DNA from: an uncultured Planctomycetia bacterium
GTDB lineage: Bacteria; Planctomycetota; GCA-002687715; DRQF01
Length of the DNA stretch: 64,000 bases
NCBI GenBank assembly: GCA_964559135.1
Contig: CAZLGG010000003.1
Coordinates: forward strand, 2,231 to 66,230
Direction of reading: 5' to 3'
The notes beneath the pieces are model-generated. The model saw only the letters and a program-made list of their open reading frames with translations, made no database searches and had not been told where the DNA came from. This document shows, piece after piece, positions 31,618-35,742 of this stretch (its first letter is position 1; every line of letters starts with the position of its first letter). Position numbers and translations under genes: made by a program.

Positions 31618-32096
31618 GTTATCGCGTCGGAATGGGGTACGACATTCATCGGCTGGTCGACGGCCGGCCCTTGATTCTCGGAGGCGTGTCGATCCCCTTC
31701 TCGCGAGGACTCCTCGGCCACTCGGACGGTGACGCTCTGCTTCATGCGGTCACCGATGCGGTCCTCGGTGGTGCGGCCTTGCCCGACATCGGCGAACTGT
31801 TTCCCGATGACGATCCGAACTGGAAGGGAGCGGACAGCCGTCGACTCTTGGCACTGGCGATGGAGAAGGTGGCGGAGGCGGGCTATCGCGTCCGCAACGT
31901 GGACGTCAATATCCTCGCGGAGCGCCCGAAACTTTCTCCCTTCAAGGCGGCCATGCGTGAGGGGGTCGCGGAGATTCTCAAGATCCCGCCGGTGGATGTC
32001 AGCATCAAGGCAAAAACCCGCGAGCGACTGGATGCCGTCGGTCATGGGGAGGCCATCGAGGTGCACTGTGTCGTTCTTCTGATGGAGGAGCCGTGA
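31614..32096 (+). CDS. ispF: 2-C-methyl-D-erythritol 2,4-cyclodiphosphate synthase
   Basis: ORF trimmed to MSYRVGMGYDIHRL…SDGD (zinc-binding D-H…H). ATGA overlap with ispD. Confidence 0.9.
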   Translation: MSYRVGMGYDIHRLVDGRPLILGGVSIPFSRGLLGHSDGDALLHAVTDAVLGGAALPDIGELFPDDDPNWKGADSRRLLALAMEKVAEAGYRVRNVDVNILAERPKLSPFKAAMREGVAEILKIPPVDVSIKAKTRERLDAVGHGEAIEVHCVVLLMEEP

Positions 32097-33358
32097 TCAT
32101 GAGGATCGAAGTGGCTGCCGTTCTTCTCATGCTCTGCGTCCCTCCGTGGGCCCTCGGGCAGGAAGAGAAGATCGCGAGGGACGTGGCGCGATTGGAAACC
32201 TGCCTCGTGCAGACGCGGGAGTTGGGGGAGACGGCCGCGCGGGCTCTCGGCAGGGCGCGCCGTTCCCACCGCGAGGGCGCGTGGGTCTATGGGGCACTTC
32301 GGCGCACCCTCGAAGGGGCGAAACCCGTGGTCGGTCTCGGGAAAAAGGACGTGGCGGCTCGGGTGCAGCGTCTCACCAAGGCGCTCCGTTCCGTGATCGA
32401 TGATGGAATGGAGGCGGTTTTGCCCCTGAGAACCCGCATCGGGGAGTTGAAGAATGAAGGGGCGGTCGAAGCGGGCGAGCCGAAGAACTCCACGGTTGCT
32501 TTCCTCGTCGCGATCCTCGGGAGGGTGGAGGATTCCGTCGTCGCCGCGGCGGCGCGCAAGGCCCTCGGTACGAAGGGCGGGGGCGTCTACTTGGGGATGT
32601 GGGAGAAGGAGCGCGCTTGGCGTGCGAATTACCTCGAGGGATTTCGGCTGATCCTCGAGGACATCGTTGCCGCCGAGGATCAGCGCGTTCTCGCCGCCGA
32701 CGCCATCGGGCAACTCACGCTCACCGAGGACGCCTCGGAGCGCGCGCGAATGATCGGGATCTGCCGCGGGGTGCTCACGTCGAAGGCCCCCGTTCCGCCT
32801 GCGGGCGTGAGGGACGCTGTCATCTTCGCTCTCGCCCGACTGGGTGAACGGGAACCTTTTCTCTCCCGCGTGCGTCCGATCATGAAGCAGTTGAAGGACC
32901 TCTCCCGCCAGGAGCCTCCGGACGCCAACAGGATTCTCGGTCTGCAACTCGAGTTGGCGGCGCTCTACATGGGCGCCTATGACTACGAGAACGCGACGAG
33001 GGCCTACGCCTCCGCCTTGGGGATCCTCTATCAGAACGTCACCTTCGACCGCACGAGCCCACAGGGGCGAGCGGAGATCGCGAACGCCCTCTACAACCTC
33101 GCGTGCACGCTGGCGCGCTCGGGTCGGTCCAACAAGGCCCTCGCGATCCTCGATCAGGCCTTCGCGTGGGGCTTGCGCTCCTTTTCCTGGTGTCGGAAAG
33201 ACGGGGACCTGAAATCCTTGCGCGCCCAGCCGCGATTCGATCCCCTCCTTGACGCCTGGGAGAAGGGCCGGAAAAAACCTGGAGACGGCATCCTTCCCGG
33301 CTCCGACTTCCTGAAACTCATGGCGGCGTTTTTGCCGAGCACGAATCCGTCGAAGTAA
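32093..33358 (+). CDS. Secreted hypothetical protein (421 aa, TPR-like C-terminus)
   Basis: Signal peptide MIMRIEVAAVLLMLCVPPWALGQ. ATG overlaps the ispF stop (ATGA). Confidence 0.5.
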   Translation: MIMRIEVAAVLLMLCVPPWALGQEEKIARDVARLETCLVQTRELGETAARALGRARRSHREGAWVYGALRRTLEGAKPVVGLGKKDVAARVQRLTKALRSVIDDGMEAVLPLRTRIGELKNEGAVEAGEPKNSTVAFLVAILGRVEDSVVAAAARKALGTKGGGVYLGMWEKERAWRANYLEGFRLILEDIVAAEDQRVLAADAIGQLTLTEDASERARMIGICRGVLTSKAPVPPAGVRDAVIFALARLGEREPFLSRVRPIMKQLKDLSRQEPPDANRILGLQLELAALYMGAYDYENATRAYASALGILYQNVTFDRTSPQGRAEIANALYNLACTLARSGRSNKALAILDQAFAWGLRSFSWCRKDGDLKSLRAQPRFDPLLDAWEKGRKKPGDGILPGSDFLKLMAAFLPSTNPSK

Positions 33359-33442
33359 CGGCGATTTCAAAAAAATCGAACCCTGCTTCGAGCCGTGCGT
33401 CCATGAGGGGCGGAACGCAGTCCTTTGAAACGGAGCAAGAAC

Positions 33443-34372: not shown

Positions 34373-35629
34373 ATGGGGCCTCTGGGCGTCGGTTTTTCCT
34401 TGCACGCCGACGCCGATTTCTTGGAAGTGACCCGTCCGCTCATCGAGGAGGAGGCGGACTACTTCGAGGTGGCGCCGGAAATGCTTTGGCGACCGGGGGG
34501 CGACCCCTTGGAACCGAATGACTTCTTCGATCTGTTCTTGAACTTGAAGCGTCGTTCGGGACGACCGTTCACGGCTCACGGTTTGGCCTTTTCCCTCGGC
34601 TCCGATCCCTCGGAACGCTGTGAGCAAGTCCGGTTCGATCGCTGGTTGCGCGGCCTGGACCTCTGCCACGCGGCGTTCGATTTTCGATGGTTCTCGGACC
34701 ATCTGGGGTGGGTGTTTGCCGAGGGGCTGAATCCCGTCTTCCCGCTTCCGCTCCCGATGACCGCGGAGGCGGTGGAGAGGGTGGTCGCCCGTCTCGATCG
34801 GATCGCCGAGATCGTCCCCGTCGTGGCTTTCGAAAACGGCGCGGACGCATTTCGTTTGGGCCCGCCCGGCCTCGAGGCCCCGTTCTGGAACGCCATCACG
34901 GGGCATGCGGGCGCGCAAATGCTCCTCGATCTGCACAACCTTTACACGGAGTCGGTCAATCTCGGCTTCGATCCCGAGGAGGTGCTCCGGCAGCTCGACC
35001 TCTCTCGGGTCATCCAGATCCATTTGAGCGGGGGCAGTCTGAGCGATGGGGACTGGATGCACTCCGGCCGCCAATTCCGCTTGGACAGTCACGACAACGC
35101 CGTGCCCGAGGACGTTTGGCGGCTCTATGAATCGGTGCTTCCCCACTGCCACGGTTTGAGGGGCGTGGTGGTGGAGCGCCTCAATGGGACGGTCCATTCC
35201 GCCGAGGACGTGGACGAACTCCGGCAGGAGATGGGGAGGGCCCGGGCTCTTCTGCAGGCGCGCGACCTTGCGGCTCCCCGTTCGCTCGGTCCTTCCTCGC
35301 CTCTCCCCGCGGGCGGGAGCCTCTCGGGGCTCCAACGGCACCTCGTCCGGCACATCGCGGACAGCGATTCCTTCCCCAACCTCGACCTCCGGGCCTATCC
35401 CGAGCTTCGTCACGTCGACCCCGAGGGCTACCGCCTGACGACCCTCATCGTGCGCAAGCTTCGCTTCGAGCGGCTCTGCCTGGCGCATGGAGACGTGGCC
35501 AGAGCCTTCGAGACCGAACCGGCGGCGCTCCTCGATCTCTACGAGCGCTTCGCCCACGATGTGCCGCCCCATGCCGTCTTCCCCTCCGACGACGCCCGAG
35601 CCTGGCAGGACTGGCGCGCGTCCCCTTGA
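34373..35629 (+). CDS. DUF692/UPF0276 (MNIO, MbnB/TglH-like TIM-barrel) enzyme fused to a C-terminal DUF2063/MbnC-like partner domain
   Basis: N-terminal about 280 aa carry DUF692 hallmarks GVGFSLH, YFEVAPE, HGLAFSLGS, WFSDHLGW, LPLPMTAEAV, AFENGADAF. An extra C-terminal extension of about 130 aa (…YRLTTLIVRKLRFERLCLAHGDVARAF…LYERFAHDVPP) is partner-like. Confidence 0.65.
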   Translation: MGPLGVGFSLHADADFLEVTRPLIEEEADYFEVAPEMLWRPGGDPLEPNDFFDLFLNLKRRSGRPFTAHGLAFSLGSDPSERCEQVRFDRWLRGLDLCHAAFDFRWFSDHLGWVFAEGLNPVFPLPLPMTAEAVERVVARLDRIAEIVPVVAFENGADAFRLGPPGLEAPFWNAITGHAGAQMLLDLHNLYTESVNLGFDPEEVLRQLDLSRVIQIHLSGGSLSDGDWMHSGRQFRLDSHDNAVPEDVWRLYESVLPHCHGLRGVVVERLNGTVHSAEDVDELRQEMGRARALLQARDLAAPRSLGPSSPLPAGGSLSGLQRHLVRHIADSDSFPNLDLRAYPELRHVDPEGYRLTTLIVRKLRFERLCLAHGDVARAFETEPAALLDLYERFAHDVPPHAVFPSDDARAWQDWRASP

Positions 35630-35670
35630 CTTCGCTCCCCGAAGCCGTCACTATTCCGGCACGTAACCCA

Positions 35671-35742
35671 GCGGGTGTAGCTCAGTGGTAGAGCGTCAGC
35701 TTCCCAAGCTGAATGTCGTGAGTTCGATCCTCATCACCCGCT
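35671..35742 (+). tRNA. tRNA-Gly (anticodon CCC)
   Basis: Same acceptor and D-arm as the GCC isoacceptor. Anticodon stem TCAGC/GCTGA with loop TTCCCAA; T-arm GTGAG-TTCGATC-CTCAT; discriminator U. Confidence 0.9.

Follow-up and report, generated by a model that had tools for sequence, protein, structure and literature searches.

A Planctomycetia MNIO fused to a helical partner-like domain, and a thioredoxin-like protein with a Tat-type signal and a two-cysteine tail as its candidate substrate

Within the window, which is the whole 64-kb stretch of DNA that was analysed, one locus is probably a three-part protein-modification module in which a 308-aa protein would serve as the substrate, ChrH-type chemistry would modify it and a Tat-type route would export it. 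A rough probability of 0.6 is given to this reading. The features of the locus are as follows.

30907-31617: ispD (Pfam match)
31575-32096: ispF (Pfam match)
32093-33358: ORF of a 421-aa Sec-signal protein
33443..34369, + strand: ORF of the 308-aa RR-signal protein, the candidate substrate, from an unannotated family
33443..33520, + strand: N-terminal Tat-type signal, possibly also a leader, about aa 1-26, MDRRGFVRGLIAAPMVFGLGKLGVGS
33536..33913, + strand: thioredoxin-fold domain without CxxC, aa 32-157
33926..34189, + strand: helical repeat domain of the 308-aa protein, aa 162-249
34205..34366, + strand: C-terminal tail with the two Cys, proposed as the core, LPLGTSMPRFVPMG-C268-LSYTEVKPGMAKPKGEVIA-C288-GMPSLSSTGGRFLRFVAKVK
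34244-34246, + strand: codon of C268
34304-34306, + strand: codon of C288
34373-35629, + strand: ORF of the 418-aa MNIO-helper fusion
34373..35254, + strand: MNIO (DUF692) TIM-barrel catalytic domain, aa 1-294, PF05114
35255..35302, + strand: Pro- and Ser-rich linker, aa 295-310, the fusion point, ...RDLAAPRSLGPSSP...
35303..35626, + strand: helical, partner-like domain fused to the MNIO, aa 311-418; its conserved helix reads L-I-V-R-K-L-R-F-E-R-L
35671-35743: tRNA-Gly(ccc)

The ORFs and motifs described in an earlier sequence-only reading of the locus were all found, and the 421-, 308- and 418-aa ORFs each have a coding-type composition (GC3 0.79–0.81 versus GC2 0.43–0.48). The 308-aa ORF begins MDRRGFVRGLIAAPMVFGL with a GGAG 9 nt upstream, and the ATG of the 418-aa ORF lies 3 nt past its TAG. 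The overlap of the 421-aa ORF with ispF had been given as ATGA and is actually GTGA; an ATG is located 3 nt past the ispF stop. The 421-aa protein, once counted as a component of the system, is conserved in one close relative only and is placed outside the module. The observation that no small precursor ORF lies beside the enzyme gene holds for the window, and the enzyme is accompanied by no conserved small ORF. The sole short precursor candidate in any related locus, an ORF of locus L033, carries the same signal and Cys core as the 308-aa protein.

The placement of the enzyme in DUF692 was confirmed by HMM, with residues 5–294 matching PF05114 (MbnB_TglH_ChrH, 141 bits with the cutoff at 25, E 5.6e-41). 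Scores against NCBIfam models were 111.4 bits for ChrH (NF050165, MNIO_ChrH), 110.9 bits for BufB and 99.2 bits for HvfB, all below the respective equivalog cutoffs of 600, 310 and 360 bits. The NF050165 alignment spans model positions 4–287 of 363 and leaves the helical part unaligned. A match to TglH (8hci_D, E 2.9e-15) aligned the segments LDLHN, HLSGGS and DSHD (HLxGGS, DxHD). At least 97% conservation across 120 homologs was observed for H69, H110, E154, D186, H188, N189, H217, D238, H240, D241 and E268; the individual iron ligands among these His, Asp and Glu residues are taken to be as in the MbnB and TglH structures. MNIOs, multinuclear non-heme iron oxidases, hold two or three irons and use O2 to oxidise a peptide. 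No signal peptide is present in the 418-aa enzyme. Its description as an MNIO fused to a partner-like domain is supported.

Fused homologs differ in both the length and the sequence of the linker, and it is at the linker position that the MNIO stop and the helper start are located in split relatives. The helper is fused to the MNIO in the window and in L001, L002, L006, L011, L012 and L016; in L005, L007, L014, L015, L017–L019 and L021 it has a gene of its own that overlaps or lies close by. As modeled, the domain comprises 108 residues, all helical and with no strands. The suggestion that this extension resembles the DUF2063/MbnC partner was borne out by its fold and by its existence as a separate gene in relatives, and not by Pfam, where 20 C-domain sequences gave no match to DUF2063 (PF09836) at E ≤ 10. 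The best structural matches are three solved MNIO partners (DUF2063/MbnC/TglI fold), and the model appears to adopt the fold of the N-terminal helical domain of MNIO partner proteins. Foldseek did not detect this likeness, and a profile search of PDB sequences with the helper domain found no MNIO partner. An RRE or winged-helix substrate-binding domain (PME-type 1) is absent from the helper model; the only class that this fits is the short PME-type 2 described in PMC12452194.

The 308-aa protein matches no Pfam or NCBIfam family, and neither do 34 relatives, save for weak hits to TIGR01409. A profile search of 1.84 billion proteins identified 109 representative clusters of this family (50% identity), mostly in Planctomycetota and with one Myxococcaceae locus. 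Family members share a Tat-type signal (RRxFL), a thioredoxin-like part lacking CxxC, a helical part and a tail bearing two Cys. In the AF2 model of the 308-aa protein (pLDDT 87.4, pTM 0.84), the active-site CxxC after strand 1 of the thioredoxin fold is absent, confidence is low over the signal segment, as if it were unfolded, and the pLDDT drops to 66 around C288.

Four Cys are present, at positions 104, 108, 268 and 288. While the sequence-only reading had stressed the CxxxC pair (C104/C108), this pair is unconserved in the family and only C268 and C288 are kept. The invariant columns in an alignment of 34 sequences are P255, G257, C268, C288 and G289, and no feature of the family is invariant apart from the RR motif and, at the C-terminus, P-x-G...C...CG. 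Two or more Cys within the final 70 residues, along with a CG within the final 32, were found in 91 of the 97 representatives. The spacing is CxxC in 32 and 9–23 residues in most others; tails reading CPxCG[M/L/R] occur in 32 of 91 members. The window tail reads C268-x19-C288-G-M-P, with 19 residues between the two Cys and a Leu directly after C268, and CPxCG is encoded nowhere in the 64 kb.

Gene neighbourhoods were compared by HMM scans over 36 fetched loci, retrieved with the MNIO, the helper or the RR-protein as the starting point, with the 26 distinct loci having enough flanking sequence taken as the denominator. The proposed pairing of the enzyme with a Tat-signal protein recurs: in about 21 of 26 loci, RR-protein genes adjoin those of the MNIO and helper, on the same strand everywhere except L033. 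There are one to seven tandem copies per locus (seven in L001, five in L016, four each in L013 and L030). Since such multiplicity is typical of RiPP precursor genes, the arrays count toward a role as substrate. In L013, L016, L018, L019 and L030, CxxC and long-loop forms are mixed in one array beside a single MNIO gene. The L033 ORF is a mini version of roughly 100 aa that retains only the RR signal and DPCPPCGMA...EFLRL. The RR-protein is missing from the available sequence in about 5 of 26 enzyme and helper loci (L007/8, L011, L029, L031, L032). At L007, a ferritin-like protein and an amine oxidase are encoded instead. A link to copper had also been proposed; nothing in any neighbourhood examined points to copper, and copper-homeostasis, DoxX and sigma/anti-sigma genes were not found there.

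The N-terminal signal is strongly patterned. RRxF[LIVM] is present in 77 of 93 family members and FG[L] in fixed register in 81 of 93, with A-Q at +21/+22. In 80 of 97 members the RR precedes a run of 12 or more uncharged residues, and in 44 of 93 the residue after the h-region is basic. The window protein has a Tat-type (S/T)RRxFLK motif and a mildly hydrophobic h-region, reading D-R-R-G-F-V-R followed by 12 uncharged residues, with no clear AxA. The TIGR01409 model (TAT_signal_seq) matched 4 of 34 family members weakly (best E 0.0036) and gave no match for the window protein. Tat, a route that requires TatABC and the RR pair, is suited to proteins that fold before export.

From these features, a mechanism may be proposed. 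A cytoplasmic 418-aa MNIO, with a small helical helper subunit fused C-terminally via a Pro-rich linker, would act on the folded 308-aa protein encoded 3 nt upstream, a protein of redox-dead thioredoxin-like and helical domains. The enzyme would oxidise the flexible C-terminal tail bearing C268 and C288 (...GC...x19...ACGM...RFLRF). We infer that the most likely reaction is a ChrH/DybH/MelH-type four-electron oxidation giving a macrocycle with a hydantoin heterocycle and a mass change of -4 Da; a ring joining the two Cys-derived positions would span 21 residues as opposed to 4. Modification of the folded precursor in the cytoplasm would be followed by export via the twin-arginine-type signal and by signal cleavage, and the unusually conserved h-region (AAPxVFGL) may double as a recognition sequence for the helper domain. 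The ChrH-type ring is an extrapolation because the window protein has no CPxCG, its Cys are 19 apart and a Leu follows C268. It also weighs against the module that the enzyme is no ChrH equivalog, scores on par with BufB and is 28% identical to ChrH, in the barrel only. Further points against are the lack of sequence homology between its helper and the ChrH C-domain in hhalign, the loci in which no RR-protein was seen and the short window signal with its missing AxA and TIGR01409 match.

The expectation that this architecture would be undescribed does not stand, as publications from 2025–26 describe ChrH-like MNIOs that act on 34-kDa secreted proteins and have the helical domain either fused or split. 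In these systems, a C-terminal helical bundle is fused or split off as MelHc, and the CPACGMG motif of MelA1, a 34-kDa secreted protein, is modified (PMC13056109, preprint PMC12636315). MelHc is needed for activity on MelA1, and the CPxCGxG motif of ChrA, DybA and MelA1 is converted to a -4 Da macrocycle with a hydantoin, including in the 34-kDa secreted protein (PMC13056109). Products of this subfamily are expected at -4 Da, or at +10 Da where S-methyl is also present. Like ChrH, DybH and MelH+MelHc, the present enzyme joins a TIM-barrel MNIO to a helical domain through a linker, the domain being separate in some lineages, and neither clade has an RRE-containing partner. ChrH-like substrates and the candidate substrates here alike have an export signal at the N-terminus and a motif of two Cys close to the C-terminus, which in 32 of 91 tails of the present family is CPxCG[M/L]. 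Those of the ChrH-like enzymes can be folded secreted proteins of 30–40 kDa, comparable to the 308-aa protein, and both modules would be minimal enzyme-substrate gene pairs with no tailoring genes.

The two clades also differ. The present enzyme is about 24–30% identical to the ChrH family, in the barrel only, and its helper of 108 aa has its own RKLRFERL helix, whereas the ChrH-family helical domain has about 65 aa (7.8 kDa). An hhalign comparison of the helper with the ChrH C-domain, using OCR-derived ChrH sequences, gave a probability below 1%, the helical-domain architecture itself being present. The signature peptides of the present clade are absent from the sequence tables of PMC13056109. 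None of the 97 substrate representatives ends in CPxCGxG, the motif here being followed by ...RRFLRFLxK, and the signal is of the twin-arginine type, unlike the Sec SPI/SPII signals of ChrH-like substrates (Sec/SPI for ChrA and MelA1, PMC13056109). The inter-Cys spacing of 2 or 9–23 residues and the arrays of up to seven paralogs further set this family apart.

Other MNIO systems are more distant. The partners compared were DUF2063/PME-type 1 (NGO1945, 3DEE), MbnC (7DZ9), TglI (8HCI) and PME-type 2 (PMC12452194); in contrast to these, the present helper is fused to its enzyme and has no PF09836 or other sequence match and no RRE or winged helix. MovX, from a Vibrio methanobactin-like cluster, likewise has an accessory domain in the MNIO chain and no separate partner, but the extra domain is a winged helix-turn-helix and the target is the C-terminal Asn of a small peptide (PMC12452194). 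Bufferin and oxazolin systems (BufABC, HvfABC) share a Cys-targeting MNIO and substrates with export signals that are modified before export; the bufferin signal peptide contributes to recognition, and oxazolins can be large proteins (PMC12452194). They differ in their Sec or lipoprotein signals, full DUF2063-RRE partners and copper-linked operons, and their substrates carry DUF2282, Buf2 or EGKCG signatures, none of which is on the 308-aa protein.

A different chemistry on the same substrate is considered unlikely. Each Cys would separately give a metal-binding heterocycle, which could be the 5-thiooxazole of bufferins or the oxazolone-thioamide of methanobactin and oxazolins, and the pair would form a copper site in the exported protein. 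BufB (110.9 bits) and HvfB (99.2 bits) score comparably to ChrH (111.4 bits), but all three are far under their cutoffs. A Gly always follows the second Cys and often the first, as in EGKCG/MbnA cores (PMC13056109), and the spacing of 9–23 residues in about 60% of the family suits two sites better than a small ring. The helper is predicted to have the DUF2063/MbnC/TglI fold used by those systems, and export signals of bufferin precursors take part in recognition (PMC12452194). However, the substrate bears no DUF2282, Buf or EGKCG signature, the neighbourhoods examined hold none of the copper-homeostasis, DoxX or sigma/anti-sigma genes, and CPxCG[M/L], found in a third of the family, is the proven macrocycle and hydantoin motif (PMC13056109).

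A bolder version of the module reading is doubtful. Here, one MNIO would make Cys-Cys macrocycles of 4 to about 24 residues on the tails of folded thioredoxin-like proteins, and the Tat signal would be a RiPP leader read by the fused DUF2063-like domain, itself a Tat proofreading chaperone that would delay export until modification is complete.

It is quite improbable that the 308-aa protein is not a substrate at all and is instead exported with a thioredoxin fold and a C-terminal Cys pair that serves as a common redox or metal site. Its place beside the enzyme would then have some other cause, and the enzyme would target an unrecognised peptide or protein encoded elsewhere. CPxCG is well known, too, as a metal-knuckle or redox motif, and this explanation would account for the enzyme-helper loci with no nearby RR-protein, including L007 with its ferritin-like protein and amine oxidase. 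Against it, no conserved small ORF lies beside the enzyme, the thioredoxin-like domain has no CxxC, the L033 mini version consists of signal and Cys core only, and arrays of up to seven paralogs with 3-nt or overlapping junctions (translational coupling) are what pairs of precursor and enzyme genes typically show. CPxCG is also the modified motif of a proven MNIO substrate in the ChrH family.

General export signals need no conservation of sequence or register such as that of the short h-region here (12 uncharged residues in the window, P-x-V-F-G-L). This and the few, weak TIGR01409 matches would fit an RR segment acting solely as a leader that the helper domain would use in the cytoplasm, with the modified protein staying in the cell, yet this is the least probable explanation given the prevalence of RRxF[LIVM], the basic residue after the h-region in nearly half of the members, the presence of A-Q-D-type cleavage sites and the export of the related MNIO substrates ChrA, MelA1, DybA and bufferins (PMC13056109, PMC12452194).

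With the module reading preferred, the novelty lies in the clade of the enzyme, in the family of its candidate substrates, in their Tat-type signal and in the loop of variable length. MNIO enzymes have long been regarded as peptide (RiPP) maturases. Whole secreted proteins as MNIO targets were shown for one subfamily only in 2025–26 (PMC13056109). The present locus would define a second MNIO clade with the same logic, by model score no closer to ChrH than to BufB, together with a previously unannotated substrate family of about 109 clusters. Evidence at the level of the predicted fold ties helical domains of this kind to the DUF2063/MbnC/TglI partners. The likely Tat route would suit proteins that are folded, and here probably also modified, before export. 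Since the candidate target Cys are spaced by 2 to 23 residues within single arrays, these arrays amount to a natural experiment on ring size, and both full-size and mini candidate substrates exist for the same enzyme type. How substrates are recognised, which ring sizes are tolerated and how modification is coupled to export become directly testable with this system.

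The 418-aa protein encoded at 34373–35629 in the window matches PF05114 (MbnB_TglH_ChrH) over residues 5–294 with an E-value of 5.6e-41 (Pfam). This profile-HMM result bears out the sequence-only reading, which had assigned the protein to the DUF692 or multinuclear non-heme iron oxidase (MNIO) family. The NCBIfam equivalog models for ChrH, BufB and HvfB give only ~100–111 bits against cutoffs of 600, 310 and 360, respectively. Thus, the enzyme is a genuine MNIO that lies outside every named subfamily. Its nearest solved relative is TglH (8hci_D, E = 2.9e-15) with which the LDLHN, HLxGGS and DxHD motifs align. 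Eleven positions (H69, H110, E154, D186, H188, N189, H217, D238, H240, D241 and E268) are conserved at 97% or more in 120 homologs and, judged from sequence, this pattern is the one needed for an active iron site. The enzyme has no signal peptide.

The genes in and around the module are arranged as follows.

Features of the window around the MNIO gene
30907–31617, ispD (Pfam)
31575–32096, ispF (Pfam)
32093–33358, 421-aa ORF
33443–34369, 308-aa ORF (RR-protein, the candidate substrate); ATG start with GGAG 9 nt upstream, N-terminus MDRRGFVRGLIAAPMVFGL
34373–35629, 418-aa ORF (enzyme-helper fusion); ATG 3 nt past the TAG of the 308-aa ORF
35671–35743, tRNA-Gly(ccc)
35815–36801, unannotated 328-aa ORF between the tRNA and a PTP-like phosphatase gene
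36995–38845, 616-aa protein with an M23-peptidase domain, between the tRNA and the same phosphatase gene

The ORFs previously noted at 32093–35742 are all present, and the codon-position GC pattern of the 421-, 308- and 418-aa ORFs is of the coding type (GC3 0.79–0.81). From ispD through the module (30907–35629) the junctions are overlapping or short and a convincing terminator was not found; ispD and ispF, which are isoprenoid genes, and the modification module appear to share a transcript. Other genomes carry the module in unrelated contexts. A scan of 30000–37000 for riboswitches or other RNA elements returned nothing besides the tRNA. The tRNA and the phosphatase gene are separated by ~3.1 kb (35744–38863). 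The syntenic relative L002 lacks this stretch and has the phosphatase gene directly after the same tRNA; the stretch looks like an insertion beside a tRNA gene. Further along, an N6/N4 DNA methylase is encoded at 41455–42540 (PF01555, E = 2.9e-42) and is also found in L002; no obvious restriction partner was seen among the ORFs examined.

The 421-aa protein has a hydrophobic signal at its N-terminus, and its C-terminus matches the "TPR end-of-group" domain (NF047558, E = 1e-11). Its overlap with ispF had been read as ATGA; the actual junction is GTGA, with an ATG 3 nt past the ispF stop. The overlap couples its translation to that of ispF. The protein is an odd companion of the housekeeping genes ispDF. 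Noted earlier as a Sec-signal protein, it recurs only in a 79%-identical relative and was rejected as a module member for this reason.

The C-terminal extension of the enzyme had been likened to a separate partner protein, and this proved correct. Enzyme homologs fall into two length classes, one of 413–467 aa that aligns end to end and one of ~290–300 aa that consists of the barrel only. In the short class, the enzyme gene is followed, usually with overlap, by a small ORF: 123 aa in L005, 122 aa in the P0073 locus, 125 aa in L021, 105 aa in L019, and 133 aa in L007, where it lies 2.2 kb downstream of the enzyme. Since these small helper proteins align to the extension with the common pattern DPDGxxLTxLIVRKLRFERLC...FP..EA..F..W, the window protein represents a genuine fusion of two genes, joined by a linker rich in Pro and Ser (residues 295–310). 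Sequence searches of Pfam, NCBIfam and the PDB gave no match for the C-terminal domain, and a word-indexed search for homologs, queried with this domain by itself, was also negative. By structure, the helper domain matched in ranked order NGO1945, the DUF2063 prototype (3dee_A, 6.3), MbnC (7dz9_C, 5.5) and TglI (8hci_C, 5.0).

HMMs were built for the enzyme, the helper and the RR-protein and all fetched loci were scanned.

Copies of same-strand RR-proteins adjoining the enzyme and helper
Window, 1
L001, 7
L002, 1
L005, 2 (one per side)
L006, 1
L012, 1
L013, at least 4
L014, 1
L015 (Myxococcaceae MAG), at least 1, divergent
L016, 5
L017, at least 3
L018, at least 2
L024, 2
L025, at least 3
L026/27, 2
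L028, at least 2
L030, 4
L034, at least 1

The gene order is enzyme, 105-aa helper and three RR-proteins in L019, and RR-protein, enzyme and 125-aa helper in L021. The trio is present in about 21 of 26 informative loci, consistent with the proposed synteny of the fusion and the Tat-signal protein, and the same trio is recovered when divergent RR-proteins are the starting point. Within the flanking sequence examined, no RR-protein was found near the enzyme in L007/8, L011, L029, L031 and L032. In L007 (3200–5895 and 9120–9521), a closely related short MNIO without a nearby RR-protein is preceded by a ferritin-like (ExxH-type) protein of 331 aa and an amine oxidase of 542 aa; L008 is arranged alike, and in this setting the enzyme clade may use another substrate or serve another pathway. 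No other genes were conserved around the module in the neighbourhoods examined. Nor was any small ORF conserved that could be a hidden precursor; none had been noted next to the enzyme in the window itself. A divergent ORF of ~100 aa lies upstream of the enzyme-helper pair in L033 (864–1202, minus strand). In it, an RR signal (GRRGFLAGAIAAPLAYSL) is joined by a Pro-rich spacer to the core DPCPPCGMARVPDRSREFLRL (DPCPPCGMARV...EFLRL). It lacks the thioredoxin-like and helical bodies and is a peptide-sized version of the candidate substrate. Thus, the signal and the Cys tail travel with the enzyme, and the folded body is optional.

Neither Pfam nor NCBIfam has a family for the 308-aa protein. When 1.84 billion representative proteins were searched with a profile, 109 clusters (250–350 aa long) were recovered at E ≤ 0.001. 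In a 34-sequence alignment (mean identity 32%), the RR pair is nearly invariant and P57, G158, P255, G257, C268, C288 and G289 are invariant; the CxxxC stressed earlier (C104/C108) is not conserved. AlphaFold2 models the protein with confidence (pLDDT 87.4, pTM 0.84) in four parts, among them a disordered signal region, a domain of helical repeats and a C-terminal tail, where the confidence drops to 66 near C288. In 91 of 97 near-full-length representatives, the final 70 residues hold two or more Cys and the final 32 include a CG. The last two Cys are spaced CxxC in 32 of these 91, typically as DPCP[PGA]CG[MLR], and by 9–23 residues in most others; the window protein, with C268-x19-C288-GM, is of the latter kind. 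In L013, L016, L018, L019 and L030, arrays that adjoin one enzyme gene mix CxxC and long-loop tails, which suggests that the two tail Cys work jointly and that a loop may be inserted between them. The inter-Cys loops in these arrays are often acidic-rich. The sixth of seven tandem paralogs in L001 (5842–6861) has lost both tail Cys, ends in PLPGRNLRYVEFLADARPSR and matches only positions 1–193 of the RR-protein HMM; this copy seems degenerate or repurposed.

When aligned at the RR pair, the signals of the family give the consensus M-D-R-R-x-F-L-x-x-x-A-A-A-P-L-V-F-G-L-x-x-L-x-A-Q-D. RRxF[LIVM] is found in 77/93 members, FG[L] in fixed register in 81/93, and a basic residue after the h-region in 44/93; in 80/97, the RR is followed by 12 or more uncharged residues. 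The sole model matched repeatedly, though weakly, was TIGR01409 (4/34). The pattern is of a predicted Tat type. The signal of the window protein is itself a borderline case: it has 12 uncharged residues and lacks a clear AxA. The sequence conservation of the h-region exceeds the needs of export and would fit an additional function in recognition, by analogy to bufferin signal peptides, which act in recognition (PMC12452194). Literature searches found no paper that combines an MNIO with Tat.

The enzyme-partner-substrate architecture had been considered undescribed; however, it has a close published precedent in the ChrH-like MNIOs (PMC13056109, PNAS 2026; preprint PMC12636315, Nov 2025). These consist of a TIM barrel, a linker and a C-terminal helical bundle of ~7.8 kDa that in Cyanobacteria is encoded apart as MelHc and is required for activity. 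Their substrates carry CPxCGxG at or near the C-terminus, one of which, the 34-kDa secreted MelA1, yields a −4 Da product with a macrocycle plus hydantoin, and small sequence clusters occur in Myxococcota and Planctomycetota (PMC13056109). The sequence-only reading is partly supported, in its fusion and synteny, but not in its undescribed architecture, its CxxxC or its 421-aa protein. By sequence comparison, the present clade is nonetheless distinct. Its enzymes are 24–30% identical to the ChrH family over the barrel only and fall below the ChrH equivalog cutoff. The helical domain is larger and could not be aligned with ChrH C-domain sequences derived from OCR text, which may contain errors; hhalign against them was likewise not significant. 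Unlike ChrH-family substrates, the RR-proteins bear an RR-type signal and a conserved RFLRFLxK follower; they form a separate protein family, and none of 97 representatives terminates in CPxCGxG. Signature peptides of the clade are absent from the sequence tables of PMC13056109, and the family is not described in the MNIO landscape paper.

The statements on function that follow are inferences. Most likely, the cytoplasmic enzyme-helper fusion would bind the folded precursor, possibly via its signal peptide, and carry out a four-electron oxidation of the Cys pair in the flexible tail, after which the RR-protein would be exported. For CPxCG members, a macrocycle plus hydantoin of the ChrH/DybH type would be the natural expectation; extrapolated to the window protein, the same reaction would give a 21-residue ring. 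The main rival is that each Cys is converted independently to a thiooxazole or oxazolone-thioamide to create a metal site. Metal-homeostasis genes are absent from all neighbourhoods examined, and none of these hints at the copper binding first suggested.

Current understanding is not overturned by any of these findings. For specialists, the module offers a new family of candidate substrates, a predicted and likely Tat route, Cys spacing that varies inside single arrays, a pair of mini and full-size substrates, and a fold link from the helical domain to the classical MNIO partners.
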